A stretch of DNA of 64,000 nt from Candidatus Thiodiazotropha sp. Its GTDB lineage: Bacteria; Pseudomonadota; Gammaproteobacteria; Chromatiales; Chromatiaceae. The DNA is taken from the NCBI GenBank assembly GCA_040507245.1, contig JBEVVH010000002.1:10297-74296 (forward strand). The letters run 5' to 3'. Of the stretch, positions 5,983 through 34,153 are shown piece after piece. Position numbers and translations under genes: made by a program. The notes beneath the pieces are model-generated. The model worked only from the letters and a program-made list of their open reading frames with translations, was not told where the DNA came from and did no database searches. Within the stretch, counting starts at the first letter, position 1. Each line of letters begins with the position of its first letter.

Positions 5983-7265
5983 TGTCCTGCTCCCTGTGAT
6001 TCTATTTTCGCCATGTAGGCGTTTTTCATGGCCGCTTCAAGCGCCTGATTGGAGGCGTATTCAAAACCGAAAACACTCTGCCACAAGTCATGGTTTTCCA
6101 TGCACAGATAGAAGAACACCTCGTCGTGCCAGGCCTTGAGTCCCTGGTAGGCAAAACGAAACATCGACTCCTTGATGTGCCTCGGATAGGAGAGTTTGCC
6201 GTCGCTTTCGACCAGCGGCATCTGCAGAATCTTGCTGCGGAATCCGGCACGGGCGCGCAACTGCTTGATCACCGGTTTGATGTAGGTGAGTGTACCCAAC
6301 GAAACCAGAACCACCTCGCGGGAGGAGAACCCGGATGTCATCCTGAGCAGCAGGTCAGCGTAATCCGCTTCCCAGGCATCATAATGAATCATCGGGTGCA
6401 GGTGAAAGCCCACCCGCACCCCCTTGTCCGCCAGGCGGCGGGCGGCCTCCAGCCGCTCGTCCAGGGACGCGGTCAGATGCTCTTCATGGGCAATCAGGGT
6501 TGGGGTATTCAGGGACCAGGTACAGAGAATGTTCGCTGGCACCTCATGTTTCAGCAGGTAGGCGATGTTTTTCGATTTGGTCTTGAGTTCCAGAATCACA
6601 TTGGGATAGCGCCGGGCAAAGCCGAACAGGGCATCCAGGATCCCCCCCTGATTACCCCACATCAGCGAATCGGAGGATTGTCCAGTACCAATGTGATAGG
6701 TCCTGTGCGGGTCGAGTTCGAGTTGCTCAAGCTTTTCCGAGAATTTCGCATCGAAGCGTACCTCGTCCCCATGATAGAAGGACTGAATGCTGCAATAGCT
6801 GCAGTCGAAGCCGCAATTCTCCACCGCATCCAGGGTCATCAGGTTGCAGCAGCGGGTGCGCGGTGATGCGACCGGGCAGGTTCCCAGGCCTAACCGGTCC
6901 TTGACCACATCGATGCGCTGAATGCGCTGTTCGGCCCGGGGCGGTGTCAGGGGAATCCGCGGATAGTGATTGGGCTGCTCCCTGAGTGCCTGCCAATGCT
7001 CTCGCACCTGTGCGAGCAGCCATTGACGTTGCTGTTTCGGTGCGGCTGCCGGCACCCCCTCAGCAGGCCAGGCAGATTCCAGACTCCCCTCCCCCCACAT
7101 GCTCAGGTCCACCGCCATGTCGCACAGCTGACGCAGTTCCTGGTAAGTGAATCGATAGCGTTCGGACTGTTGCTGCAGGAAACTGCGTTGCGCGGGCTCC
7201 AGGCGTCCGATTCCTGCCTGCTCAAGCGAGGTCCGTGGATCGTCGCGATCTGGCATCTGGGACAT
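5979..7265 (-). CDS. Radical SAM protein of the spore photoproduct lyase (SplB)-like family
   Basis: CxxxCxxC motif (NCGFDCSYC), plus ELKTKS, WSLN and VGFHLHP segments resembling SPL-family core strands. Confidence 0.8.
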   Translation of the reverse strand: MSQMPDRDDPRTSLEQAGIGRLEPAQRSFLQQQSERYRFTYQELRQLCDMAVDLSMWGEGSLESAWPAEGVPAAAPKQQRQWLLAQVREHWQALREQPNHYPRIPLTPPRAEQRIQRIDVVKDRLGLGTCPVASPRTRCCNLMTLDAVENCGFDCSYCSIQSFYHGDEVRFDAKFSEKLEQLELDPHRTYHIGTGQSSDSLMWGNQGGILDALFGFARRYPNVILELKTKSKNIAYLLKHEVPANILCTWSLNTPTLIAHEEHLTASLDERLEAARRLADKGVRVGFHLHPMIHYDAWEADYADLLLRMTSGFSSREVVLVSLGTLTYIKPVIKQLRARAGFRSKILQMPLVESDGKLSYPRHIKESMFRFAYQGLKAWHDEVFFYLCMENHDLWQSVFGFEYASNQALEAAMKNAYMAKIESQGAGQ

Positions 7266-7278
7266 GGGACAGGCCTCG

Positions 7279-8667
7279 TTATTTACGTGTAACGAAGCGC
7301 TTCAACCGCTGCCGCTTCTGCACCTGGCGTTTGGTGAGTTTGTTGCGCTTGCCTTCATAGGGGTTTTCCCCGGAACGGAACTCGATGCGGATCGGGGTGC
7401 CCTTGAGATTGAGCGCAGTACGAAAACGGGTGGTCAGATAGCGTTTATAGCTGTCCGGCACCTGATCGGTCTGGTTGCCATGGATGACGATCAAGGGGGG
7501 ATTCTTGCCGCCCTGGTGGGCATAGCGCAGCTTGATGCGTCGACCGTTGACCAGCGGCGGTTGATGCTCCTGCACCAGAATTTCCAGAATTCGGGTCAGT
7601 TCCGGGGTCGACAGGTCGCTCATGGCACTCTTGTAGACCTGCTTCACCATATCGAACAGATCCCCCACGCCGGAGCCGTGCAGGGCGGAGATGAAGTGAC
7701 GACGGGCAAACTTGAGAAACGGCAGCTTGCGCTCGATCTCCTCCTTGATCCATTCCCGCTGGTCCTGATCGAGTCCGTCCCATTTGTTGATCACCAGGAT
7801 CAGAGCACGGCCGCTTTCCAGCACATGTCCCGCCAGGGTGGCGTCCTGTTCGCCGATCTCCTGCTGGGCATCCAATACCAGCAGCACCACATTGGCTTCC
7901 TGGATCGATTGCAGGGTCTTGATGATGCTGAACTTCTCGATCGCCTCCTTGATCCGGGCCCTGCGCCGCACACCGGCGGTGTCGATCAGGGTGTAGCGGG
8001 TGCCGTTGCGTTCCATCGGTACATAGATGCTGTCCCGGGTGGTGCCGGGCTGGTCGAAGGCGACCACCCGCTCCTCGCCCAGAAGGCGATTAACCAGAGT
8101 GGATTTGCCCACGTTGGGACGGCCCACCACCGCGATTTGAATACCCTTCTCCTCGGCGGAGATCTCCCCTTCGGGTTCGGGCAACTGTTCCAGCACCCCA
8201 TCGATGAGGCGTCTTACGCCACGTCCATGGGCCGCCGCAATGGCCGCTGGTTCACCGAGCCCGAGGCGGTAGAAATCATTCACCGCCAGGGTCTCATCGA
8301 GATTCTCGCTCTTGTTGATCGCCAGGGTCACCGGTTTGCCGGTCTTGCGCAGGGCCTGGGCGATGATTTCATCACCTCTGGTACATCCCTCTTTGGCGTC
8401 GAGCAGAAACAGGATATGGTCCGCTTCACCGATGGCCTGCTGAACCTGTTGCGCCATCAAGCCGTCGATACCGGCCTCGTCGCCACTGATCCCGCCGGTG
8501 TCAACCACCACGTAAGGATGCTTACCGAGCTTACCCGTGCCGTACTTGCGGTCCCGGGTCAGGCCGGGCTGATCCGCGACCAATGCATCCCGGCTTCGGG
8601 TCAGCCGATTGAACAGGGTGGATTTACCCACATTGGGACGCCCGACCAGGGCGATGACTGGCAGCAT
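7279..8667 (-). CDS. der: Ribosome biogenesis GTPase Der
   Basis: Two tandem GTPase domains (GRPNVGKS twice, DTGG/DTAG, NKSE/NKWD). Confidence 0.98.
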
Positions 8668-9830
8668 CAGGGTTGCTCGGTTTCGATGGGATGTGCCTGC
8701 AGGGCGGTCAGGGTGCCGCCTTCATCCAGGATATACACCACATCGTAGACGACCAGCGGCTTATAGCGGATCGGATCACTACCGACCTTGATCCTCGCGA
8801 GCTGGCGTCCATCGTCCTGGGACAACCAATGCACATAACCTTCCAGGTCGCCCACCACCAGGTACTCGCCCACCATTGCCGGAGCGGTGAGACGCCGGGC
8901 GTGCAGTTCCTTCTGCTGCCACAGGGCGGCGCCATTGCTGGTATCCAGAGCCCAGACATGATCGTTCGCATCCGTGACGAACAGATTCCGCCAGCTGGCA
9001 TCCAGTCCGGCATGTGAGGAGAGTTTGCGGCGCCACAACACGACACCACTGGATTCGGAAACCGCCGCGACATCGCCCTGGAACGCCGCCACGTAGACAG
9101 TGCCTTCCACCAGCTTGGGGTCCGCGTCGATATCCACCACACGTTCCAGTTCGGTCCTGCCCTGAGGTACGGATATCTCCGCCTCCCAGGTGACCAGTCC
9201 CGCGTCGAGGCTCAAGCCGATCAACTTTCCACCGGCAAATCCCGCAATCACCCGGGATTCACCGATCACCGGTGAGCTGTCACCCCGCAGGGACAACACC
9301 GGCACGCTGCGATCATAGAGCCAGCGGCGTTCTCCCGCATCCGCGGTATAGGCCGCGACACCGCCATCGGCCGTCCGGCACACCACATAACCGCCACGTA
9401 TCGCGGGTGTGGAGAGCACTTCACTGCCCACCCTTTGACGCCAGCGCTCAGAACCATCCGCGGCATCCAGCACGATCAGGTCCGCCTCCAGGCTGCCCAG
9501 TGCGACCAGCCCTTCGCCAACCCCGGGTCCGCCACTCAGGGGAGTTTCGAGATCCACGGACCAGAGGGTTTTGCCATTCTCAGCATCGACCGCGTAGACA
9601 CCGCCGGACGGTTCTGCCAGGTAGAGCACCCCATCCTTGTAAGCCGGCTTGAGTTTCAGCTGCGCCCCTTCCGCGCCTTCGAAGCCATCATCCCAGAGGG
9701 TTTCGATCTTCAGACTGTTCTGCAGTTCGACCAATTCCGCCGGCGGGTCCGCATTGTCTTTGCCGGACAACAGACTGCAACCGGTCAGCAGCAGCAACAA
9801 CGGTATCGGCCAGAGTGCCCGGTGTTTCAT
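8667..9830 (-). CDS. bamB: Outer membrane protein assembly factor BamB
   Basis: Lipoprotein signal MKHRALW..LLLLTGC, PQQ-like beta-propeller repeats, [12 protein letters not shown] motif, position between yfgM and der. Confidence 0.95.
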
Positions 9831-9831
9831 T

Positions 9832-10464
9832 TCAGCCCCGGGACTGCTCGACCGCCAGGTCATCCAGCTTCATCTGCAACAGCGCGCGATCACCCACATC
9901 CTCGGTCATGGCCTGGGTATAGGCCTCGGCGGCGGCCGCCTTGTCTCCCTTGGCAAGCGCGATATCACCCCGCAGAACCGCATATTCACCCTGAAAGGCT
10001 CCGGCATCATCAGCCACCAGTTTCGAGGCTTCGTCATAGGCGCCTTCGTCGAGCAGGACTCTTGCCAGATTGAGGCGTGCCAGGCGCACCAGGGAGGGAT
10101 CATCCGCCTGCTTGATCACCGACTCCAGCTTTGCCTTGGCCGCAGCCCGGTCATCCCCTTCCAGCATCAAACGAGCCTCGGCCAGTCCGCCGAACACCGC
10201 ATAGGCGGTGCCGTCGTAGTTCTTTTCCAATAGTTCGGCCTGTTTCTGCGCCGACTCGGTGTCACCGCCCTGTACCGCGGTGAGCATCTGATTGAAGCCT
10301 ACCGAGGCTTCGGCACCAATGCGCTCCTGATAGCTACCCCAGGCCTGCCAGCCGAACACACCGCTCAGCCCCAGCACCAGTCCGGCCACCACCGAGGTAC
10401 CGTTCTCCTTCCACCATTTTTTTATCGCCTCGACCTGTTCTTCTTCTGTCTCGTATACGCTCAT
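9832..10464 (-). CDS. yfgM: Ancillary SecYEG translocon subunit YfgM (TPR)
   Basis: YETEEEQVEAIKKWWKENG N-terminus, single TM, synteny. Confidence 0.93.
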   Translation of the reverse strand: MSVYETEEEQVEAIKKWWKENGTSVVAGLVLGLSGVFGWQAWGSYQERIGAEASVGFNQMLTAVQGGDTESAQKQAELLEKNYDGTAYAVFGGLAEARLMLEGDDRAAAKAKLESVIKQADDPSLVRLARLNLARVLLDEGAYDEASKLVADDAGAFQGEYAVLRGDIALAKGDKAAAAEAYTQAMTEDVGDRALLQMKLDDLAVEQSRG

Positions 10465-10494
10465 TGGTCATTCCCATTCGATTCGATGTATCAA

Positions 10495-11775
10495 TTATTC
10501 GGATTCCGCCAGTACCCGTTGCGCCAGATCCGTCTCGATCGCCGCCAACGGAAGCGACACCTGCTCCCCACCGCGTAGGGGTTTCAGGCTGATCTCACCC
10601 CGGGCCAACTCCTCCTCACCCAGGATCAAGGCATAGGGCGCCATGCTCTTGTCCGCCTTTTTCATCTGACTTTTGAAACTGCCGCCGCCACAGTGGTTGA
10701 TCAACCGCAATTGCGGCAGCGCGTCACGCAGGCGTTCCGCCAACAGCATGCCTTCGCGGACCGCAGCGTCCCCCTGGGTCACAAGATAGACGTGCGGCTG
10801 CGGCAGACGTTCCATGATATCCGTCTCTTCCAACAGGGCAATCAACCGTTCCAGCCCCATGGCGAATCCCACCGCCGTGCTCTCCCGGCCCCCCAGTTGT
10901 TGCACCAGGCCATCGTAGCGCCCGCCGGCGCAGACCGTCCCTTGGGCACCGAGCTGAGTGGTCACCCATTCGAACACGGTCCGATTGTAGTAATCCAGGC
11001 CGCGCACCAGGCGCGGATTCAACACATAGGCGACCCCGGCAGCCTGCAACCCCTGGCACAGACGATCGAAATGATCCCGGGATTCCTCGCCCAGGTGCTC
11101 CATCAGGGACGGAGCCCCCGCGATCAGATCCGCCATTTCCGGATTCTTGCTGTCGAGAATCCGCAGGGGATTGGTATGCAGGCGACGCTGACTGTCCTCG
11201 TCCAGTCGGTCCGGGTGTTGGCTGAAATAGGCAACCAAGACCTCCCGGTAACGGGCCCGTTCCTGCGAGGTGCCCAGGGTATTGAGTTGCAATTCGAGTC
11301 CATGCAGCCCCAGTTCCTTCCAGATCCGCGCAGTGATAAGGATCAGCTCCAGGTCGATGTCCGGACCGTCCATGCCGAAGGTTTCGACACCGATCTGGTG
11401 AAACTGCCGGTATCGCCCCTTCTGCGGCCGCTCGTGCCGGAACATGGGCCCCTGATACCAGAGACGCTGCACCTGATTAAAGATCAGGCCGTTTTCCAGT
11501 CCGGCACGCACACAGCCTGCGGTCCCCTCGGGACGCAGGGTCAGGCTGTCACCGTTGCGGTCCTCGAAAGTGTACATCTCCTTCTCGACGATATCCGTCA
11601 CCTCGCCGATCGAGCGCTTGAACAGCTCTGTCATCTCGACGATGGGCATGCGGATTTCGCTGTACCCGTAGCGGCTCAGCACGGAGCGCACCCGGTCCTC
11701 CAGGAACTGCCAGAGGGGCGTCTGTTGCGGCAGGATGTCTTTCATCCCGCGAATGGCTTGTATCTGCTTGGCCAT
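10495..11775 (-). CDS. hisS: Histidine-tRNA ligase
   Basis: [24 protein letters not shown] and LVRGLDYY motifs. Confidence 0.98.
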
Positions 11776-11953
11776 GGGCGTTAGAAAAATTCATAAAAGC
11801 GGGAGAGATTACCACGTCGGACCGGTACAACCTAGCAGGCTGTCGAAATTCCACTCAGGCGGTGCGCTGCACATCCACTCAGGCCGGTTCACCGCCGGTG
11901 ATAACGCATTCAATCCGTGCGATGCCTTTACACAGACTGACCTGAAAAGGTCC

Positions 11954-12931
11954 TCACTCCGATGAATCCAGGGTGAAACGGGCGACCTTGCCCCGGGAGC
12001 GGCTTTTGAGATCGAATGGCTGACCATCGATGGTGAGTGACACGGCATCCACATCCCCGAGCACCACATTGAACGGACCATACTCACTGCTGAGCCGCCG
12101 TACGGTGTCGGCTTGCATCTCGCCAATCATGCGCACCTTGCCGTCCCGGTCACGGACTTCCGTCCAGCAGGGCGCGTTGAAACGGAATACCAGGGTTTTA
12201 GACGTACCCGCAGGAGCGGGTTCAGGTGCGGGAACCGATGCTTCGGGCGCTGTCTGTTGCGGCTCCTCGGGCGCCTCGGAAATGGGTTCCGGGGCCAGTA
12301 TCGCTTGTTCGGACAAGGCCTCTTCCTCAACCGGAATGACCTCTATCACCTCAATCGGCTCAAACTCCCTGGGTTGGGTGACACCGCTGTCCATGGCTAC
12401 AGGATCCACGTCAGTGGGTGTCTCAACCGGCTCCCGGGTCTCTGCCGCATCGTTGTTCGAGATGCTGTCCGCAGGGCTTGCAACGGGCGCGATCTCTTCC
12501 AGTTCCGAACGTGTCTGCCACCAGAAAAACAGCGTTCCCGCAAGAATCAGGATAATTCCCCAGGTGAACAGCCGCATGATGCCGGATCCACTGTGCAGGG
12601 GTTTGCGTGGTTTTTCCCGTCTTACCGGGGCCACATTGACCACAGCGTCCTGATCCTCTGGCAGCAGCCTCTGATATTCGGCAACGATGGCTTCTTCGTT
12701 CAACCCCAGAAGACGGGCGTAATTTTTCAGGTACCCCTTGACGAACACGGGCCTTGGCAGTTGCTCGTAGTCATCGGCTTCGAGCGCTTTCACCACCGCC
12801 GAGGTGAGATGCAGACGGGCTGCCACCTCGGACAGGTTGAGTCCCAGATTTTTTCGACTCCGCTCAAGCTGCGGGCCCGGGCCCTGATGGGAAACGGTTA
12901 CCGCTTCGTTCTCATCCTGATTTGAGGCCAT
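11954..12931 (-). CDS. rodZ: Cytoskeleton protein RodZ (HTH, TM, DUF4115-like domain)
   Basis: N-terminal HTH with FVKGYLKNYARLLGL, one TM, Pro/Glu-rich linker, synteny. Confidence 0.9.
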   Translation of the reverse strand: MASNQDENEAVTVSHQGPGPQLERSRKNLGLNLSEVAARLHLTSAVVKALEADDYEQLPRPVFVKGYLKNYARLLGLNEEAIVAEYQRLLPEDQDAVVNVAPVRREKPRKPLHSGSGIMRLFTWGIILILAGTLFFWWQTRSELEEIAPVASPADSISNNDAAETREPVETPTDVDPVAMDSGVTQPREFEPIEVIEVIPVEEEALSEQAILAPEPISEAPEEPQQTAPEASVPAPEPAPAGTSKTLVFRFNAPCWTEVRDRDGKVRMIGEMQADTVRRLSSEYGPFNVVLGDVDAVSLTIDGQPFDLKSRSRGKVARFTLDSSE

Positions 12932-13716
12932 TAGTACGATTTTTCCATTTGGTAGAGTGACTGAATTTCCGGCGCATCCGGGAAATCCTGCATGAGCTGG
13001 CCCCGATACTCCTCTGCCTTGGCCATATCGTGCATGCTCCGCTCAATACGGATACCCAGCAGGAGAGACGCGGCGGTGGGCTTGGACTCACCATGAAAAC
13101 GTTCCAGGTAGGCACGTGCGGACATGTTTTTTTTCTGTTGCAGCGAGATGCCCGCCATCTGGATCAGAGCCGGCGCATACTTTGGGTTCGCCGTGAGGGC
13201 GCGTCGATAGTAGTTTTCCGCCTTGTCGATATTATCCTGCCGCTCAATGCACAACCCCGCATTGGTCAAGGCCACCCAGGGTGTGGGATAAAGCGGGTTG
13301 GAGAGGGCGCGCTCGAAATCATCATTGGCCGCCTCATATTTCCCGAGACGGCAGTTATAGCTGCCCCGGGCATTGCGAATGAAAGGGTCCTTGGGATTCA
13401 AGGCCACCGCACGATCATAGTGCTTGCCCGCCAGATCGCTCTCGCCGAGCTTTTCATACAGAATGGCAATCACATTGTGCGCATCGGCATAACCGTCATC
13501 GACCTCGATCGCCTTCTTGAGTTTTTGCATCGCCACCGCATTGCGGTTGTCCCGCATATAGGCCATGCCCATTTCCACATAGATCTTGGCCGGACTGTTT
13601 TTCTGCTCCGCTCCGAGACTGCCGGTCGCGTCACTGCCGCCCTGCGTGGCACAGGCTGAGAGCATGACGGACACAATAAACCCCGCGATCCAATGCCATC
13701 CTGTCAGAAATTTCAT
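12931..13716 (-). CDS. pilW: Type IV pilus biogenesis/stability lipoprotein PilW (PilF)
   Basis: Lipobox LSAC, TPR repeats, ALSNPLYPTP motif, synteny between rlmN and rodZ. Confidence 0.92.
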   Translation of the reverse strand: MKFLTGWHWIAGFIVSVMLSACATQGGSDATGSLGAEQKNSPAKIYVEMGMAYMRDNRNAVAMQKLKKAIEVDDGYADAHNVIAILYEKLGESDLAGKHYDRAVALNPKDPFIRNARGSYNCRLGKYEAANDDFERALSNPLYPTPWVALTNAGLCIERQDNIDKAENYYRRALTANPKYAPALIQMAGISLQQKKNMSARAYLERFHGESKPTAASLLLGIRIERSMHDMAKAEEYRGQLMQDFPDAPEIQSLYQMEKSY

Positions 13717-14810
13717 GAAACACCCTGTTTGAGAGTTACAGCAACCTGGGATCTCAATTGCCGGCTGCTGCGATCCTGGACTTTACCCACCAGTTGCCCG
13801 CAGGCCGCATCGATGTCATCCCCCCGGGTCTTGCGCGTCGTGGCGACTATTCCGGAGCGTTTCAGGCGCATGCGGAATGCCTCCACCCGATCCGGAGGGG
13901 AGGTACGGTAATCGGTTCCGGGAAACGGGTTGAAAGGAATCAGGTTGACCTTGGAGGGGGTCCCCTCCAGCAGACGGATCAGCGCCTTGGCATGATGCAG
14001 GCTGTCATTGACGCCATCCAGCATCACATACTCCCAGGTCACCTTGCGCCGCTTGTCACCCTGGACGAATTCCCGGCATGCCGGTATCAGCTCTTCCAGG
14101 GGATATTTACGATTGATCGGCACCAGCACGTCCCGCAACGCGTTGTCCGGCGCATGCAACGAGACCGCGAGACTGATGTCACACACCTCCCGAAGACGTT
14201 TCAGAGCGGGAACGATTCCCGAGGTGCTGACCGTAACCCGGTATTTGGAGACCATGTAGGCAAAATCATCCTGCATGATACTCATCGCGGTAATCACCGC
14301 ATCGAGGTTGGCCAGCGGTTCGCCCATTCCCATCATCACGATGTTGCTGGGCGCCTGACCCAGTTCCCGGCTTGCCACCCAGACCTGACCGATGATTTCA
14401 GCCACGCTCAGATTTCGGTTGAAACCCTGCCGGGCGGTGGAACAGAAGGAACAGTCCAGGGCACAGCCGACCTGGGAAGAGACGCACAATGTGTTGCGCC
14501 CGTCATCGGGAATCAACACCGTCTCGATCCGCTGACCGTCGTACAGTTCGAGTAGCCATTTGCGGGTGCCGTCCCGGGCCGGTTGCTCCAGAACCCGTTC
14601 CGGTGCGCGGATCTCCGCGATCGCGGTCAACTGCTCACGCAGGCGTTTCGAGATATCCGTCATGGCCTCGAAATCGGTCACCCCGTGCTTGTGTATCCAC
14701 TTGAATACGTTGCGTCCGTGGAAGGCCTTGGAGCCCATTTCCACGAATAACGCCTCGATCGACTCGCGATCGAGATCCAGAAGATTGATCTTTGGTGTCT
14801 TGTCAGTCAA
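13713..14810 (-). CDS. rlmN: Dual-specificity RNA methyltransferase RlmN
   Basis: CVSSQVGCALDCSFC, MGMGEPL and DIDAACGQL motifs; TTG start. Confidence 0.97.
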   Translation of the reverse strand: MTDKTPKINLLDLDRESIEALFVEMGSKAFHGRNVFKWIHKHGVTDFEAMTDISKRLREQLTAIAEIRAPERVLEQPARDGTRKWLLELYDGQRIETVLIPDDGRNTLCVSSQVGCALDCSFCSTARQGFNRNLSVAEIIGQVWVASRELGQAPSNIVMMGMGEPLANLDAVITAMSIMQDDFAYMVSKYRVTVSTSGIVPALKRLREVCDISLAVSLHAPDNALRDVLVPINRKYPLEELIPACREFVQGDKRRKVTWEYVMLDGVNDSLHHAKALIRLLEGTPSKVNLIPFNPFPGTDYRTSPPDRVEAFRMRLKRSGIVATTRKTRGDDIDAACGQLVGKVQDRSSRQLRSQVAVTLKQGVS

Positions 14811-14933
14811 AAGTGGCGCTACACAAGTCTGTGGGGTTGGAAAAAATACACAAAATAACAGTATCTTAGTTTAGACCTGACGACACGGGCTGGCAATCCG
14901 TCAAGATGCACCCCTGTCCTGGGCCGGAACCAT

Positions 14934-17138
14934 TCATATTATACGTTTGACCAGATTTACGTCAGGCAGTTGTTCAACTTTTGACAGAAGCCGGCTGAGT
15001 TGTTTCATATCGTTGACTTCCACCGTAAAACGCATGGTCGCAGTGTCGGTCCTGCGGTCGCTGTTGGTGTTGACGCCGATGACATCGATATCCTCATTGG
15101 TGAGAATGCCTGAGATATCCCTCAGCAGCCCCTTCCGGTCATGGGCCACCACCATGAAGTCGACCGCATACTGGCTTTTCTCCTGCTCGTCGCCCCAGTG
15201 CACCTCGATCAGCCGTTCCCGCTCCTCGCCCTGCAGGTGGCGGATGTTGGGGCAGTCCCGACGATGAATGGTGACCCCCCGCCCACGGGTCACATAGCCG
15301 GTGATTGCATCATAGGGTACGGGCTTGCAGCAGCGGGCGATGCTGGTCAGAAGGTCATCCACGCCATCAACCACCACCTCACCCTTGCCGGCCTGATGGG
15401 CATGCGGGGTGACCGGCACCGGTTTGGAACGGGGTGCGGGCTTCTCACGTTGACCGAAACCCGCCACCTGAATGGATGAGAGATCCCCCCGTCCAATCGC
15501 CGCGTAGACATCATCCGCATGCTGCAGATTGTACTTGGCTGCAACCTTTTCCAGATCCGGTTTTTCGGAGATCGAGAGCCGGGTCATCTCCTTTTCCAGG
15601 GCATTGCGGCCGAGTTCCACATGGTGCTCGAAGTCGAGCTGCTTGAACCACTGCTTGACCCGGTTGCGCGCCTTGGAGCTGTGCAGGTAGCCAAGATGGG
15701 GATTGATCCAGTCCCGGCTCGGGGTGCCGTTTTTCGCGGTGAGGATCTCCACGGTCTCGCCGCTTCGCAGTGGCCGATTGAGCTGCACAATGTGGCCGTT
15801 GATCCGGGCACCCCGGCAATGATGACCGATGTCGGTATGGATGGCGTAGGCGAAATCCAGGGGGGTGGAACCTTTGGGCAGCTCCACAACCTTGCCCATG
15901 GGGGTCAGGACGTAGATGCGAGTCGCCTCCATGTCCTGCTCGAACATGTCCTGCAGGTCGCTGGCGTCCTCGCCCACGTCCTTTTTCTCCAGCCACTGGC
16001 GCATCCACACGATGCGCCGTTCGAAATCCACATCCTGTTTGGCATTCTCTTTGTAACGCCAGTGCGCCGCCACGCCCAGTTCGCTGTGGTAGTGCATCTC
16101 ACGGGTACGGATCTGCACCTCCAGGGTCTTGTCCTCGGGGCCGATGACCGCGGTGTGAATCGAACGGTAGAAATTCGCCTTGGGGGTGGCGATGTAATCG
16201 TCGAACTCGCCCGGTATGTGCTTCCACAAGCCATGCACCACGCCCAGCGCGGCATAGCACTGAGCAATGTCATCAACCAGAACGCGCACCGCCCGCAAGT
16301 CGAAGATCTGTTCAATGTCCACGGCCTTGCGCTGCATTTTGCGCCAGATGCTGTAGATGTGCTTGGGCCGTCCGCTGATCTCGGCGTGCACCCCGGCGGC
16401 CGCGAACTTCTCGTGCAGCAGCGCAATCACTTCATGGATGAACTGTTCCCGGTCGGTACGCCGTCCATCGAGCTGGCTGGCGATGCGCTTGTAATCTTCG
16501 GGATGCAGGAACCGCAGTGCCAGATCCTCCAGTTCCCACTTGATCTGCCAGATACCCAGGCGGTTGGCCAGGGGCGCATAGATATCCTGGGTCTCCTTGG
16601 CCAGACGATGGCGAAACTCGGGCGTGAGGGTGCGCGCGGTACGCATCAGATGCAGCTGTTCGGCCACCACCACCAGGATGACACGGACATCCTCGGCAAT
16701 CCCCAGCAACAGGCGTCTGAGATTCTCCGCGTGCTCCTGTTCATCTTCCGGAGAAACCTCCCTCGAGATATCCGTCAACGCATTGATGCGTCCCAGGTCG
16801 TCGACCATGCGGGTGGTGTTGTTACCCAGGGCTCGCTTGAGTTTCGCCTCATCCGTTGCCGGATCCTGCAGCACGCCCAGCAGCAGTGCGGCAGCCACCG
16901 TCTCCCGATCCATGCGCAGATTGGCGAGGATCTCGGCCACGCTCAGGGCATGCCGCAGCTGACACTCCCCATTGAGCACCATGCGCCCCGGGGTCGCCCC
17001 CAGGGCGAATTCCGAGGCAAGCTTCAGGTAGTCGCGATCCTCTGACGTGAACTCGTCCGGTAACCGGGTGAGCCACTGATCCAGGGTGGCCGCATCAATC
17101 GTATCGCCATCCGGTAGCGAAGTATTGATGGTAACCAT
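14934..17138 (-). CDS. relA: GTP pyrophosphokinase RelA
   Basis: Degenerate HD domain, GRPKHIYSIWRKM synthetase motif, EFDDY, TGS and C-terminal ACT domains. Confidence 0.96.
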   Translation of the reverse strand: MVTINTSLPDGDTIDAATLDQWLTRLPDEFTSEDRDYLKLASEFALGATPGRMVLNGECQLRHALSVAEILANLRMDRETVAAALLLGVLQDPATDEAKLKRALGNNTTRMVDDLGRINALTDISREVSPEDEQEHAENLRRLLLGIAEDVRVILVVVAEQLHLMRTARTLTPEFRHRLAKETQDIYAPLANRLGIWQIKWELEDLALRFLHPEDYKRIASQLDGRRTDREQFIHEVIALLHEKFAAAGVHAEISGRPKHIYSIWRKMQRKAVDIEQIFDLRAVRVLVDDIAQCYAALGVVHGLWKHIPGEFDDYIATPKANFYRSIHTAVIGPEDKTLEVQIRTREMHYHSELGVAAHWRYKENAKQDVDFERRIVWMRQWLEKKDVGEDASDLQDMFEQDMEATRIYVLTPMGKVVELPKGSTPLDFAYAIHTDIGHHCRGARINGHIVQLNRPLRSGETVEILTAKNGTPSRDWINPHLGYLHSSKARNRVKQWFKQLDFEHHVELGRNALEKEMTRLSISEKPDLEKVAAKYNLQHADDVYAAIGRGDLSSIQVAGFGQREKPAPRSKPVPVTPHAHQAGKGEVVVDGVDDLLTSIARCCKPVPYDAITGYVTRGRGVTIHRRDCPNIRHLQGEERERLIEVHWGDEQEKSQYAVDFMVVAHDRKGLLRDISGILTNEDIDVIGVNTNSDRRTDTATMRFTVEVNDMKQLSRLLSKVEQLPDVNLVKRII

Positions 17139-17156
17139 GGTCAGGCGTGGCGCACG

Positions 17157-18398
17157 TCAATCCAGAACATGACTGACCAGGCCATCGGCCAGTTTCGGCT
17201 CGAACCAGGTGGACTTGGGGGGCATGACCTCCCCGGCATCGGCCACCGCCATCAAGTCCTCCATTCCTGTCGGGAAGAGGGAAAAAGCCACCGCCATCTC
17301 ACCGGAGTCCACGCGTTTCTCGAGTCCGGCGAGACCCCGGATACCGCCCACGAAATCGATTCGGGCATCCCGTCTCGGATCACTGATACCGAGAATCGGC
17401 TCGATCAGGTGATCAGCCAGCAGGCTGACATCCAGCCGGGCGACCGGATCATCCGCGGGGATTTTCTCTGCGGCCAGTCTCAGCCGGTACCACTGACCAT
17501 CCAGGTACATGCCGAACTCCGCCGGCTGGGCGGGTTTGACCGGCTCGCCACGGGGTTCGAGCTGGAACTCGGCGGCGACCTTATCCAGGAAGGTCTGCTT
17601 GTCCAGGCCGTTGAGATCCCTGACCACCCGGTTGTAATCCAGGATCTGCATCTGGTTGTGGGGAAAGATCACGCTGAGAAAATAGTTGTACGATTCATCC
17701 CCGGTGTGCTCCGGGTTGGCCGCCTTGCGTGCCGCACCCACCCGGGAACCGGCCGCGGAACGATGATGACCATCCGCCACGTAGAGCGCCGACATGGCGT
17801 CGAAGGCGTCGGTCAGGCGCTGTACCGCCTGGGGCTCATCCAACACCCAGATCTCATGGCGTACACCTTCCGCGGCGGTGACATCCATATCCGGGGTGGA
17901 CCCGGTAACCGCACTGAGTTGATCATCCACATCCGGGGTACTCGGATAGACCAGGAACACCGGCCCGGTCTGGGCATTCAGGGCGTCGATCTGACGCACC
18001 CGGTCATCCTCTTTGGCGGGACGTGTGAATTCATGCTTCTTGATCCGGTCCTGGTCATAAGCCTCAACCGAGGCAGCCGCCACCAGCCCGGTCTGCTGAT
18101 GCCCGCCCATGGTCAACCGGTAGATGTAAAAACAAGGCCGGGCGTCGCGTACCAGCACCCCTTCACGTTCCATTCCGGCCAGATTCTCCGCCGCCTTGGC
18201 ATAGACCTCCGGGGCATAGGGATCGGTACCCGGAGGCAGGTCGATCTCGGCTCTCGAGATATGCAGGAAGCTCCAGGGCCGTCCTTTAGCCATCTCCCGA
18301 GCTTCCGCCTCGTTCATCACATCATAAGGCGGTGCGGCCACGTCGGCGGCACGACCCTCGGCGGGTCTCAATCCGGGAAAGGCTCTTATCAAAGACAT
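17157..18398 (-). CDS. DUF1015 family protein (ParB/Srx-like core)
   Basis: APPYDV, IKKHEFT, LYVADGHHR and MPPKSTWFEPKL motifs; ATG 18398 has a better spaced RBS than 18407. Confidence 0.88.
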   Translation of the reverse strand: MSLIRAFPGLRPAEGRAADVAAPPYDVMNEAEAREMAKGRPWSFLHISRAEIDLPPGTDPYAPEVYAKAAENLAGMEREGVLVRDARPCFYIYRLTMGGHQQTGLVAAASVEAYDQDRIKKHEFTRPAKEDDRVRQIDALNAQTGPVFLVYPSTPDVDDQLSAVTGSTPDMDVTAAEGVRHEIWVLDEPQAVQRLTDAFDAMSALYVADGHHRSAAGSRVGAARKAANPEHTGDESYNYFLSVIFPHNQMQILDYNRVVRDLNGLDKQTFLDKVAAEFQLEPRGEPVKPAQPAEFGMYLDGQWYRLRLAAEKIPADDPVARLDVSLLADHLIEPILGISDPRRDARIDFVGGIRGLAGLEKRVDSGEMAVAFSLFPTGMEDLMAVADAGEVMPPKSTWFEPKLADGLVSHVLD

Positions 18399-18670
18399 GA
18401 AAAACATCCTCGTAGGGTCGGTGGTGTATTGTCAGGTCACGCTTTTCGGCTCGAATGACCCGCAAAAATGCGAGCCGCGTCAAATATTTCCGAACCAGGT
18501 TTGCCGCTCGTTGTCCGGCAATTCAGAATCACTGCCCAATCAGATTTAGAAGCATATACGCCCCTGCCAACCAGGTATCCGCAGGGCTGCGATCCACCGA
18601 AAAAGCGTAATCGGCTTGCGAGGGGGGATTGTTTCAAAAGAGTCACCCGGTAATCAAGCCACCCCTTCGG

Positions 18671-18688
18671 TGTAAGAAAAATCTTACT
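18671..18688. promoter_or_regulatory. GacA/UvrY/LetA box (upstream activating sequence)
   Basis: TGTAAG-AAAAAT-CTTACT matches TGTAAG-N6-CTTACA with one mismatch; about 55 nt upstream of the GGA-rich RNA. Confidence 0.75.
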
Positions 18689-18743
18689 TCAAAATGAGAA
18701 CAATCCTGCATCTTATCCAGGGTTATTGACTTAGACTAATCCC

Positions 18744-18868
18744 TGTCGCAAAGATGGAGGCCAGGGACGACGCACAGGAACATGGACGTGCAGGACTGAT
18801 ACCATTTGCCAACCAATCAGTGCGACATAAGATCCTGGTGCCCATGGAACGGGTACCGGGATTTTTTT
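18744..18868 (+). ncRNA. Csr/Rsm-family (RsmY/RsmZ-like) small RNA
   Basis: Five GGA motifs in 40 nt (18756, 18765, 18777, 18784, 18793) and a sixth in the terminator loop; -10-like TAGACT at 18732; intrinsic terminator; upstream GacA box; no credible ORF. Confidence 0.8.
18832..18868 (+). terminator. Rho-independent terminator of the sRNA
   Basis: ATCCTGGTGCCC-atggaac-GGGTACCGGGAT followed by a T run. Confidence 0.85.
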
Positions 18869-18961
18869 CGTTTTCAGGCTGTTAAGACACTAAAACCAGC
18901 CCTGCCAAGGACCAGCCAACGCCTCCAATAGCAAGCTTCCAGCGCTACCGGCCCGACTTGA

Positions 18962-19471
18962 TTACCCCTCTTCGGACAACTCCACCCGCCACAGATTCTG
19001 TGCCGAACCATCGAATGCATCCCAGAGCTCCCGGTAAGTGAGCCCCGACACCGGATGAACCTCGTCTCCAGCCACTTCGGCCAGGGGCAGCAGCACGAAG
19101 GCATATTCGAGGATTTCACCCCGGGGCAACTTCAGGGTTTCGGTGTCGATGATCTGATCCGCATAGGTCAGAAGATCGATGTCCAGGGTCCTGGAGTTGA
19201 ACCCTTTGGCATCCCGTTTTCGTCCGTGCCGGGTCTCAATCCCACGCAGCCGTTCCGTCAGGTCCCCTGCCGGGAGCCCCGTCATCAGACCGACCACCAA
19301 GTTGAGAAAATTGTCTCCACTGAACCCGACCGCCTCACTCTCGTAAACCGGCGACACCACCAGCGCTCCAAACTCCTTCTCGAGATCCTTCAAGGCCAGG
19401 GGGATATGACGATGCGGTTCGATGTTACTGCCGAGACTCAGCCAGACCCGGACGATACGCGGCTCAGTCAC
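18962..19471 (-). CDS. folK: 2-amino-4-hydroxy-6-hydroxymethyldihydropteridine diphosphokinase
   Basis: WLSLGSNI, FLNLV and SRTLDIDLL motifs; GTG start overlaps the folB stop region. Confidence 0.95.
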   Translation of the reverse strand: MTEPRIVRVWLSLGSNIEPHRHIPLALKDLEKEFGALVVSPVYESEAVGFSGDNFLNLVVGLMTGLPAGDLTERLRGIETRHGRKRDAKGFNSRTLDIDLLTYADQIIDTETLKLPRGEILEYAFVLLPLAEVAGDEVHPVSGLTYRELWDAFDGSAQNLWRVELSEEG

Positions 19472-19820
19472 GCTGTCCCCGCTCGATGATGACGCCCACG
19501 TCGCGGGCGGCACTGACCGCACCCACCTTGTTCAGAGTCAAGCGCACCCAGGGAACCTCAAACTCCTCCAGAACGATGCCAGCGCAGCGTTCGGCGAGGG
19601 TTTCCACGAGTTGAAACTCACTGTTCCTGACGAATTCCACGAGGCGTTTGCTGACCGCCTTGTAATCGAGGGTATCCTCGATGGCATCGCTCTGGGCTGC
19701 CTTCGCGATATCCGCCCCCATCTCGAGATCGAACACCACGGTCTGCCTGATTTCGCGCTCCCAATCGTATATTCCTATCACCGTATCGATGCGCAAGTCA
19801 CGTATGAAAACGATATCCAT
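19464..19820 (-). CDS. folB: Dihydroneopterin aldolase
   Basis: MDIVFIRDLRIDTVIGIYDWER, TLDY and FQLVETLAE motifs. Confidence 0.96.
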   Translation of the reverse strand: MDIVFIRDLRIDTVIGIYDWEREIRQTVVFDLEMGADIAKAAQSDAIEDTLDYKAVSKRLVEFVRNSEFQLVETLAERCAGIVLEEFEVPWVRLTLNKVGAVSAARDVGVIIERGQRD

Positions 19821-19986
19821 TTGGCTGAAACCCGCTGCGGAAAAGGCCACATGGTAGTTGACTGAAGGCAAGATTGCATCCCGCGCCGGGTGTGGTTTGG
19901 TTAAAGCGTATATGCCTGCTTCAGACTCTGCATGCAGGTACTCCGGTCCGCTTGACCTGTTCGGGCCCATGGAGTCCAATTGCGCC

Positions 19987-20592
19987 ATGATGACACACAC
20001 CCTTCTCATTGTCGGCGCTTACCTCATAGGCTCCATTTCCAGCGCCATCATCGTCTGCCGCCTGATGGGTCTGCCCGATCCACGCAGTCAAGGCTCCAAC
20101 AATCCCGGTGCGACCAACGTTCTGCGAATCGGCGGTAAAAAGGCGGCGGCCATCACCCTGTTCGGCGATATGGTGAAAGGACTTCTGCCAATGCTCGCGG
20201 CTCACCTTTTGCAAGCGCCGCCCGGAATCCTGGCCCTGACCGAAATGGCGGCGTTTCTCGGTCATCTCTACCCGGTGTTTTTCGGCTTTCGCGGCGGTAA
20301 AGGGGTGGCTACTGCGCTGGGGGTGCAGTTTGGTCTGCACTGGGGCGTCGGCGCCGCAGTGGGCCTGGTGTGGCTGTTCATGGCCAAGGTAGCCAAGATC
20401 TCATCCCTGTCAGCTCTGGTCTCGATGGCGCTGGCCCCGGTATTCGTCTGGTTGATCTGGCCCAGTCCCGCCTTGATCGGGATGCAGCTCGTGATGAGCC
20501 TGCTGCTGTTCTGGCGTCACCGGTCGAATATCGAAAACCTGCTGAAAGGCGCTGAAGGCAAACTGTCGGATTCTGAACCTCCCTCCTCCTGA
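19987..20592 (+). CDS. plsY: Glycerol-3-phosphate acyltransferase PlsY
   Basis: AYLIGSI, GSNNPGATNVLR, GHLYP..GGKGVATALG and RHRSNI motifs; divergent from folB. Confidence 0.96.
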   Translation: MMTHTLLIVGAYLIGSISSAIIVCRLMGLPDPRSQGSNNPGATNVLRIGGKKAAAITLFGDMVKGLLPMLAAHLLQAPPGILALTEMAAFLGHLYPVFFGFRGGKGVATALGVQFGLHWGVGAAVGLVWLFMAKVAKISSLSALVSMALAPVFVWLIWPSPALIGMQLVMSLLLFWRHRSNIENLLKGAEGKLSDSEPPSS

Positions 20593-20682
20593 TCCTGACC
20601 CTGATCCGGTAACACTGACTGATGCGATCCTGCCGGGTCTTTGCTATTTTCCTCAGGACACACAATCATCAGGACTGACCGA

Positions 20683-21639
20683 ATGATCGAATACGCCCAC
20701 CAGATCACCTGCATTGACACCCAGTACCAGCGCCCGGGGCTAGCCGCCTGCTATCTCGTACGTTCCGGTGATGAAGCGGCATTTATCGATACCGGCACCA
20801 GCCACAGTGTTCCACACCTGCTATCGGTCCTGGAATCCAAGGGCATAGACCGCACCCAGGTCCGTTACGTCATCCCGACGCACGTCCACCTGGACCACGC
20901 GGGCGGAGTGGGCAAACTGATGCAGGCGCTGCCCGAGGCCTCTCTGATCATACATCCTTACGGGGCGCGCCACATGATCGACCCGTCGAAGGTGACGGCC
21001 GGCGCCACCGCGGTCTATGGCGCCGAGGCCTTCGAGGAAAATTTTGGCGCACTGGTCCCGGTGGCGGAATCACGGGTCATCGAGGCACCGGACGGCCTGC
21101 GCATCAACCTGGGGGAGCGGGAGCTGCTCTGCCTGGATACACCGGGACACGCCCGGCACCACATCTGCATCTATGACGCACTCAGCGGTGGCATCTTCAG
21201 CGGTGACACCTTCGGCCTCTCCTACCGGGAATTCGACACCGACAAGGGTGCCTACCTGTTGCCCACAACCACCCCGATACAACTCGATCCCGAGGCCTGG
21301 TATGACACCCTGGACCGGCTTCTGACACTGCGTCCCGAACGCTTCTTCCTGACCCATTTCGGTGAGGTCACAGAGGTTGCACGACTGGCGGATCAACTGC
21401 GCAGTTCATTGCATGCATTCGTGGAGATGGCCCGTGAGACAGACGCTGCCCCGGGAGCGGAGAGAGTCGCTGCGATACACCAGAAACTGCTGGCTTGGGT
21501 CCAGCAAAGTTTGAGAGCTCACGGCTGCTCACTCAGCGATCAGATTATCGCTGAACTGCTGGAAATGGACCTTGATCTGGATGCCCAGGGTCTGGACGTA
21601 TGGTTGGCCAAGCAGGAGGAACCTTCCTCAGCGAGCTGA
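20683..21639 (+). CDS. MBL-fold metallo-hydrolase
   Basis: THVHLDHAGG (HxHxDH), TPGHARHH, FSGD and THFG motifs. Confidence 0.9.
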   Translation: MIEYAHQITCIDTQYQRPGLAACYLVRSGDEAAFIDTGTSHSVPHLLSVLESKGIDRTQVRYVIPTHVHLDHAGGVGKLMQALPEASLIIHPYGARHMIDPSKVTAGATAVYGAEAFEENFGALVPVAESRVIEAPDGLRINLGERELLCLDTPGHARHHICIYDALSGGIFSGDTFGLSYREFDTDKGAYLLPTTTPIQLDPEAWYDTLDRLLTLRPERFFLTHFGEVTEVARLADQLRSSLHAFVEMARETDAAPGAERVAAIHQKLLAWVQQSLRAHGCSLSDQIIAELLEMDLDLDAQGLDVWLAKQEEPSSAS

Positions 21640-34054: not shown

Positions 34055-34127
34055 TTTGCCGAGGAGCGCTGCAACGGAAACCATCCGCCAGGCTCGGCAG
34101 ACCCACCGATCGACCAAACGGCGCTCA
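34055..34127 (+). promoter_or_regulatory. SAH riboswitch
   Basis: TTTGCCGAG/CTCGGCAGA P1 stem, GAGGAGCGCTGCAAC..GCCAGGCTC core, pseudoknot partner AACGGCGCTCA; directly upstream of ahcY. Confidence 0.92.
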
Positions 34128-34153
34128 CTCACGATATTCAGGAGCTGACTACC

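Follow-up and report, generated by a model that had tools for sequence, protein, structure and literature searches.

The region between a DUF1015 gene and folK/HPPK in Candidatus Thiodiazotropha sp. very probably holds the gene of a small RNA (sRNA), at 18744-18868 on the plus strand, that is activated by GacA/UvrY and titrates CsrA. Positions refer to the window, which is the whole stretch of 64,000 nucleotides (nt) that was analysed (C2:10297-74296 of a 3.8-Mb draft genome with 58% G+C). Our sequence comparisons place the predicted sRNA outside the curated Rsm/Csr families and make it the founder of a new family, which is widespread in the taxonomic family (Sedimenticolaceae-type) of this organism. 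With an even chance, the sponge RNA also base-pairs in trans with the leader of csrA. A GacA box, ANGGA motifs and a terminator are the defining elements of CsrA-regulating sRNAs (PMC8523701). The parts of the predicted gene are given below, with the strand in brackets where one applies and with bit scores from two covariance models, R1 (26 genus sequences) and R2 (49 sequences). The boundaries of the RNA were placed at 18744 and 18868 because conservation starts and stops there, and its 5' end is a predicted one.

18671-18688: box 1, GacA/UvrY-type palindrome TGTAAGAAAAATCTTACT, i.e. TGTAAG-N6-CTTACT, starting 73 nt before the predicted RNA 5' end
18696-18710: box 2, partial, GAGAACAATCCTGCA, fitting GGAA-N4-CCnACA and resembling the right half of box 1; putative functional site
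18732-18737 (+): -10-like TAGACT; TAGACT or TAGAAT almost throughout the genus
18744-18868 (+): predicted sRNA of ~125 nt, copy A of three paralogues (R1 144.3 bits, R2 114.9 bits)
18745-18750 (+): helix P1, 5' strand GUCGCA, pairing with 18821-18826; invariant in the genus
18754-18758 (+): A-N-GGA site 1, AUGGA; GGA invariant in the 26 genus sequences
18763-18767 (+): A-N-GGA site 2, AGGGA; conserved in the genus alignment
18776-18779 (+): AGGA, species-specific; elsewhere CAUGAAC, CACGAAC or CUCGUAC
18782-18786 (+): A-N-GGA site 3, ACAUGGACGU, fitting ACANGGANGU; conserved in the genus alignment
18792-18795 (+): (A-N-)GGA site 4, CAGGAC; conserved in the genus alignment
18804-18818 (+): most conserved single-stranded segment, AUUUGCCAACCAAUC, with the core GCCAACCAA at 18808-18816; invariant in the genus
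18821-18826 (+): helix P1, 3' strand UGCGAC
18829-18868 (+): Rho-independent terminator with a 15-bp stem (18829-18865), loop AUGGAAC and U-tract
18844-18848 (+): A-N-GGA site 5 in the 7-nt terminator loop, with GGA at 18846-18848

The region was found by blastn once in each of 35 out of 37 congeneric genomes, at identities down to 71%, and in none of 24 genomes of other families. Within the genus alignment, conservation sets in ~120 nt upstream of the RNA and ends abruptly after the T-run. The invariant or near-invariant parts are the box in the form TGT[A/C]AG-N6-C[C/T]TAC, the element TGAGAnCAAnCCTGCAT, the -10 sequence, GUCGCA, UGCGAC, UUGCCAACCAA and the terminator. A 43-codon open reading frame (ORF) at 18754-18885 was rejected as coding: its ATG is lost and indels of 1-3 nt break its frame in relatives, and this lack of conservation indicates that the feature is non-coding.

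The isolated sRNA was predicted to fold with -47.8 kcal/mol (z = -2.9), and its conserved structure lies in two helices. The repeats TGTCGCA (18744-18750) and TGCGACA (18821-18827), for which an earlier sequence-only reading of the locus had proposed pairing, close the RNA as the near-invariant and covarying helix P1, and the strong terminator with a GGA in its loop, also described there, was found conserved. Both together had 99% of alignment cells paired in the genus (99.5% for the terminator alone), while P1 was 98% paired across the family and the paralogues, with C-G, A-U and U-A covariation. The family alignment of 49 sequences, which was fitted to the model and is therefore biased towards structure, had 90.5% of cells paired versus ~40% in slid controls, showed changes on both sides in 13 of 15 terminator pairs and 2 of 6 P1 pairs, and reached a covariation matched by none of 500 shuffles. 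Two interior helices were dropped. The inner hairpin GCAC(18772)...GUGC(18791), which the sequence-only reading had drawn with GGA motifs in its loop, has only ~60% of its cells paired within the genus (60-82% over genus and family alignments), and a CUGAU/AUCAG helix 61%.

With regard to CsrA binding, the GGA triplets at 18756, 18765, 18784, 18793 and 18846 are invariant in the genus, each of them following A-N with a variable N. Five GGA motifs had been counted earlier within 40 nt; all of them are present in 18756-18795, but the one at 18777-18779 is not conserved. Family members carry 4.96 A-N-GGA motifs each compared to 0.91 in dinucleotide shuffles, a 5.4-fold enrichment. The context of the motif in the family (C 63%, A 85%, N, GGA, U/C, G 42%) reads C-A-N-GGA-Y-G, which is the recognition consensus of CsrA/RsmA known from established work by systematic evolution of ligands by exponential enrichment (SELEX) and from structural work. 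The family consensus comprises YGUCGCC, four to five C-A-N-GGA-Y-G sites, CCUUUGCCAACCAAGCCCGGCGACA and a terminator with a GCA-N-GGA loop, and the family form of the conserved single-stranded segment is GCCAACCAAGC.

Upstream of the RNA, the GacA-type box and the -10-like TAGACT that had been read from the sequence both held up and are conserved in the genus and far beyond it. A simple sigma-70 scan did not call the TAGACT promoter, because it has no -35, and a missing -35 is usual in activator-dependent promoters. TGTAAGN6CTTACA is cited as the GacA box (PMC8523701). The box pattern was expected 0.10 times in the window. The search for further boxes returned three more strict TGTAAG-N6-CTTAC sequences, hence four in the genome versus roughly one expected as an estimate from base composition, and three of the four precede paralogous GGA-rich sRNAs (copy A and two others). 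The fourth, TGTAAGTAAGTGCTTAC at G000:C10:24088-24104, abuts the start codon of a minus-strand gene; no GGA-rich sRNA was found downstream of it, and either direct regulation by GacA or a coincidental match is possible. Across the family, the box is an 18-bp palindrome, T(G/T)T(A/C)(G/A)GAAAATTCCTACA, with a fixed start at -72 to -74 from the RNA 5' end. Its right half recurs in part as GGAA-N4-CCnACA at approximately -46 to -33, a repeat that is near-invariant in the genus, and -10 regions of the gTGgCAATCT type without a -35 come next. This fixed phasing argues for a class-I-type activator site.

Two paralogues of copy A were located on another contig of the same genome:

G000:C24:11341-11197 (-): copy B, with box 11418-11435 and GCCAACCAAGC motif
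G000:C24:10964-10842 (-): copy C, with box 11041-11058 and GCCAACCAAGC motif

Copies B and C stand in tandem between the end of a bipA/typA-like gene and a proline iminopeptidase-like gene, and their boxes lie ~21 nt farther upstream, at -94/-95. Both are built from a GUCGUC... start, four to five A-N-GGA motifs, UUAGCCAACCAAGC, a closing strand GACGAC or CUGAUGAC, and a terminator with the loop CAUGGAA/U. Their closing helices differ from that of copy A by compensatory changes, and covariance models made from homologues of copy A recover both of them. Model R1 gave full-length matches in 34 of the 83 genera of the taxonomic family, and R2 matched 76 of 121 sampled genomes and 54 of the 83 genera. 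A single genome has at most five copies, and other Thiodiazotropha genomes have two to five. Tandem arrays of three to four copies, ~270-450 nt apart, were observed at L088 (G165:C1:216591-217333) and at G003:C3:752580-753743. Among 350 genomes across the class, two to three more convincing members were found (G055, G554 and perhaps G410), while the rest of the matches fell on terminator-bearing gene ends or on an Rsm-like RNA that is unrelated. A minority sub-family in other genera (L072, L078, L084, L095) keeps P1, the A-N-GGA sites and the terminator with its GGA loop, and is without the GacA box and the CCAACCAAG segment. Its promoter is a canonical TTGACT-N17-TATAAT whose spacer contains the palindrome TTCCnAGGAA, and control by another regulator is thereby suggested.

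The genome also encodes the proteins through which such an RNA would act, and the csrA and gacS/gacA homologues sought there were all found:

G000:C92:12731-12913 (+): csrA (CsrA, 115 bits versus a cut-off of 73)

This gene sits in an aspartate-kinase / csrA / tRNA-Ser neighbourhood. A 215-aa response regulator on contig C207 matched the UvrY/SirA/GacA equivalog best and over its full length (279.7 bits at a cut-off of 280; next family 165), and its gene lies upstream of uvrC and pgsA in the classical gacA-uvrC-pgsA order, apart from one inserted gene resembling uracil-DNA glycosylase (UDG). The inserted ORF, between the gacA/uvrY orthologue and uvrC, is UDG-family-4-like (G000:C207:2938-3618, minus strand). 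A 915-aa hybrid kinase on C190 gave a full-length alignment with BarA as its best match (708.8 bits), followed by LetS.

Taken together, the conserved boxes, the A-N-GGA context, the terminator, the paralogues and the partner genes support the CsrA/RsmA-sequestering architecture that the sequence-only reading had assigned to the locus. In the mechanism that we propose, the BarA/GacS-UvrY/GacA system of the same genome would drive the sRNA, presumably in a GacA-dependent manner, from an activator-dependent promoter with the -10 TAGACT and no -35, box 1 being centred at about -64 and the partial box at about -40. The transcript would fold into the closing helix GUCGCA:UGCGAC around a mostly open interior with four A-N-GGA sites, and the terminator hairpin would present the fifth in its loop. 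These sites would bind CsrA dimers and titrate CsrA off its mRNA targets, as in RsmY/RsmZ/CsrB.

Several observations weigh against this interpretation. Most of the GGA sites are not demonstrably in hairpin loops and the interior helices proposed for them are not conserved; five sites are a low-end capacity for a sponge; and no Rfam Csr/Rsm family matches the RNA. A search of Rfam 15 returned no such family at gathering thresholds in the window, nor at E<=10 in 18550-18950, and no match at E<=1 in 11 diverse family members. Membership in RsmY, RsmZ/PrrB, RsmX or CsrB, to which the earlier reading had looked, is thus not supported. The match of the BarA-like kinase is 181 bits below the NCBIfam cut-off of 890, that of the response regulator 0.3 bits below the curated NCBIfam cut-off, and the family box TGTAGG...CCTACA (consensus TGTAGGAAAATTCCTACA) departs from the Pseudomonas consensus TGTAAG-N6-CTTACA at one position per half-site. 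These last two points, together with the different promoter of the second sub-family, would also fit a CsrA-titrating sRNA whose palindrome is bound by another NarL/FixJ-type regulator instead of the UvrY/GacA orthologue. We regard this as unlikely, as the boxes of all three copies in this genome fit the Pseudomonas consensus at 11 of 12 positions, with the mismatch at the outermost base, and the regulator is a clear best match to the UvrY family in a preserved uvrC-pgsA neighbourhood. In addition, the TGTAGG variant has already been noted as a GacA-like box in Marinomonas (PMC8523701).

Evidence for transcription was available in the form of assembled contigs. In three root metatranscriptomes, the sRNA locus was the only part of 15000-21000 that was assembled from a close relative (95-99% identity), in contigs of 204 and 151 nt with a depth of 3-23, which is weak support for the sRNA transcript. 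These shallow contigs overrun the predicted ends by ~37-47 nt, and in T. endolucinida the gill metatranscriptomes cover the sRNA with a single flat contig of 9.2 kb that carries no information on transcript ends. The overrun would also fit a reading with no independent RNA at all, in which the conserved sequence consists of DNA sites for the divergent DUF1015 gene and a terminator for the convergent folK. The two flanking genes are:

17157-18407 (-): DUF1015 gene
18962-19522 (-): folK/HPPK

Farther out lie relA/spoT upstream and folB downstream. A conserved GGATTGTTTCAAAAGA...AATCAAG at 18625-18660, which on the minus strand reads as a promoter-like TTGATT-N18-AACAAT for the DUF1015 gene, is in line with such DNA sites. 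Since the GacA box is merely 10 nt away from this element, it could serve both directions. Nevertheless, an explanation without an RNA is highly improbable: the terminator is on the plus strand and both genes are on the minus strand, the covariation in P1 and terminator is strand-specific and acts at the RNA level, and its paralogues and homologues have unrelated genomic surroundings and also form tandem arrays. Elsewhere in the window, an SAH (S-adenosylhomocysteine) riboswitch aptamer (RF01057) was detected at 34055-34133 on the plus strand with 63.3 bits versus a gathering score of 37, as the sole Rfam match.

A second possible activity of the GacA-driven, CsrA-titrating sRNA is suggested by its conserved segment, in which GCCAACCAA(G/U)C is complementary to GCUUGGUUGGC(AAU) in the 5' leader of csrA:

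G000:C92:12649-12659 (+): leader motif GCUUGGUUGGC, ~80 nt before the csrA ATG

The leader sequence is GGCGGCUUGGUUGGCAAUGG. It is able to pair contiguously over 13 nt with copy C and over 11 Watson-Crick positions with copy B (extended to 13 by one G·U wobble), and over 6+9 nt, interrupted by one bulge, with copy A. Of the 20 occurrences of the core GCCAACCAA in the genome, one is in the leader of csrA, in antisense. Among the sRNA-bearing genera examined, nearly all have GCUUGGUUGGC at 55-111 nt before the csrA ATG, and the motif is absent from the csrA leaders of the two sRNA-less genomes examined. In the 121 genomes of the family, TTGGTTGG was found 63-118 nt upstream of a csrA-type start in 51, with none for a reversed control pattern. 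The sRNA and the motif are found together in 48 genomes and are both missing from 42; 28 genomes carry just the sRNA and 3 just the motif (Fisher p = 2.3e-10, without correction for phylogeny).

Pairing was then compared across 38 genera, represented by one genome each and anchored on the cores. The 11 core positions were 87-100% paired. At the duplex edge position, 28 genera have G-C, 3 G-U, 3 C-G and 3 mismatches, with compensations in G105, G097 and G119 (sRNA C opposite leader G) and in G166 (A opposite U). Cognate partners formed 189 pairs at the duplex edges compared to 165.7 +/- 4.8 for shuffled partners (p = 5e-5), and the difference over all 24 positions had p = 0.003. The out-of-family member G055 has CCCCUCCAACC opposite GGUUGGGGGGG. 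Counter-examples are G070 and G120, and a comparison of cognate with non-cognate duplex energies in 28-nt windows of 19 genera gave a permutation p of 0.07 and a non-significant Wilcoxon test. Structure prediction leaves the sRNA segment unpaired more often than the remainder of the RNA (0.61 versus 0.44, p = 1e-5), and the leader motif somewhat less often than its surroundings (0.35 versus 0.43). No consistent cis partner of the motif was found in minimum free energy folds of 14 genera. The idea that the motif is a decayed antisense sRNA gene was rejected, as the best covariance-model E-value in 24 csrA loci was 0.035 and lay off the motif. The leader motif is also present in five genomes from outside the family in which R2 detects no sRNA, which implies that the motif may predate the sRNA family or be independent of it. 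In the csrA leader of one of the five, at L204 (G559, from another family), the motif is paired in cis as GGUUGG-UGGGAUU-GCCAACC. In the searchable literature, no earlier case was found of a sponge RNA whose complementarity in trans to the csrA mRNA is conserved.

The conserved complementarity also raises the question of whether the RNA is mainly a base-pairing, antisense-type sRNA, in which the seed GCCAACCAA(G)C acts on the leader of csrA and possibly on further mRNAs, with the GGA sites being secondary or serving only for modulation of the sRNA by CsrA. No other part of the RNA is as conserved or as accessible as the seed, the 11-nt complement of the seed is kept in the csrA leaders of at least 38 genera, and the U-rich terminator tail is typical of Hfq-dependent sRNAs. 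We consider this reading improbable, because the five A-N-GGA sites in full CsrA context are conserved independently of the seed, and the sub-family of L072, L078, L084 and L095 keeps its GGA sites, including the one in the loop, without any seed. From this sub-family, titration of CsrA looks like the common denominator. A further exact GCTTGGTTGGC was noticed at G000:C102:9056-9066 on the plus strand, 77 nt upstream of a 363-aa ORF (MKQSTRTTGFVAGIAWLIGV...). The 11-mer has five genomic occurrences, two of which are the antisense of sRNA genes, and the ORF is a possible second pairing target.

The leader motif itself is transcribed. In the host, csrA is the top symbiont transcript with ~80,000 transcripts per million (PMC13137333; top rank also in PMC12172469). 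In the gill contigs of T. endolucinida, the csrA leader and coding sequence (CDS) have 100-200 times the depth of the upstream aspartate-kinase gene. The k-mer depth rises from ~250 in the upstream gene to ~1,000 at the predicted start, 7,000-21,000 across the leader motif and 30,000-58,000 over leader and CDS, which places the motif within the transcribed region, at the 5' end of the dominant csrA RNA or close to it. At the T. endolucinida csrA locus (L124), the main rise within 590-710 spans the motif at ~668-685; it could be a second start site, with a TATTAT -10 at 685-690, or a processing site. With regard to the outcome of pairing, the fold modelled for the Thiodiazotropha leader suggests that the sRNA could destabilise csrA mRNA, for instance if it opened a 5' hairpin that protects the transcript. 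Alternatively, it could stabilise the mRNA by masking a 5'-proximal RNase site.

For better comparison, the predicted RNA was set against known systems. It resembles RsmY, RsmZ and RsmX of Pseudomonas (RF00195, RF00166 and RF02144) in its length (~110-130 nt there), the palindromic GacA box upstream, several A-N-GGA sites with one in or next to the Rho-independent terminator, multiple paralogues (rsmX being sometimes in tandem) and the presumed titration of CsrA/RsmA. However, it matches their models neither in sequence nor in structure (E<=10), its interior is closed by the conserved P1 and has no row of GGA-loop hairpins, and its box is TGTAGG...CCTACA in most genera of the family. A complement to the csrA leader is not known from the Pseudomonas RNAs, whereas here an invariant one of 11 nt is present. 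With CsrB and CsrC of Enterobacteria and Vibrio (RF00018 and RF00084) it shares the UvrY/BarA-dependent sponge logic and the GGA sites, and their csrA genes have the same aspartate-kinase / csrA / tRNA-Ser neighbourhood. Those RNAs are 250-370 nt long with 9-22 GGA hairpins, in contrast to five sites in ~125 nt, and share no homology with it. CbsR12 of Coxiella (bioRxiv 10.1101/679134) is a dual-function CsrA-binding sRNA. McaS of E. coli is another one. Both combine CsrA binding with mRNA base-pairing, as the Thiodiazotropha seed suggests for this RNA. They differ from it in that csrA itself is not among their known mRNA targets, they are not GacA-box-driven RNAs of the Rsm type and they show no homology to it. 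Finally, CsrB and CsrC of Marinomonas mediterranea (PMC8523701) were likewise identified by GacA box, ANGGA motifs and terminator, and a TGTAGG-type variant occurs there as well. They belong to an unrelated family, and the variant box lies upstream of csrA1, which is a link at the DNA level and involves no RNA-RNA complementarity.

Thiodiazotropha and its relatives oxidise sulfur, live in symbiosis with lucinid clams and also colonise the roots of seagrass and cordgrass. To our knowledge, no antagonist RNA is on record for this group. The sRNA family would therefore supply the missing arm of the Gac/Csr switch in a large, mostly uncultured clade; its covariance model serves to annotate the family, and the likely core of the GacA regulon is identified. 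If the pairing is true, a single GacA-driven RNA would control both the activity of the CsrA protein and the fate of csrA mRNA. This would be an additional Csr feedback loop, in which a sponge acts on the mRNA of the very protein it sequesters and of which no description was found in the literature searched. Such pairing would bear on csrA, the most highly transcribed gene of these symbionts.

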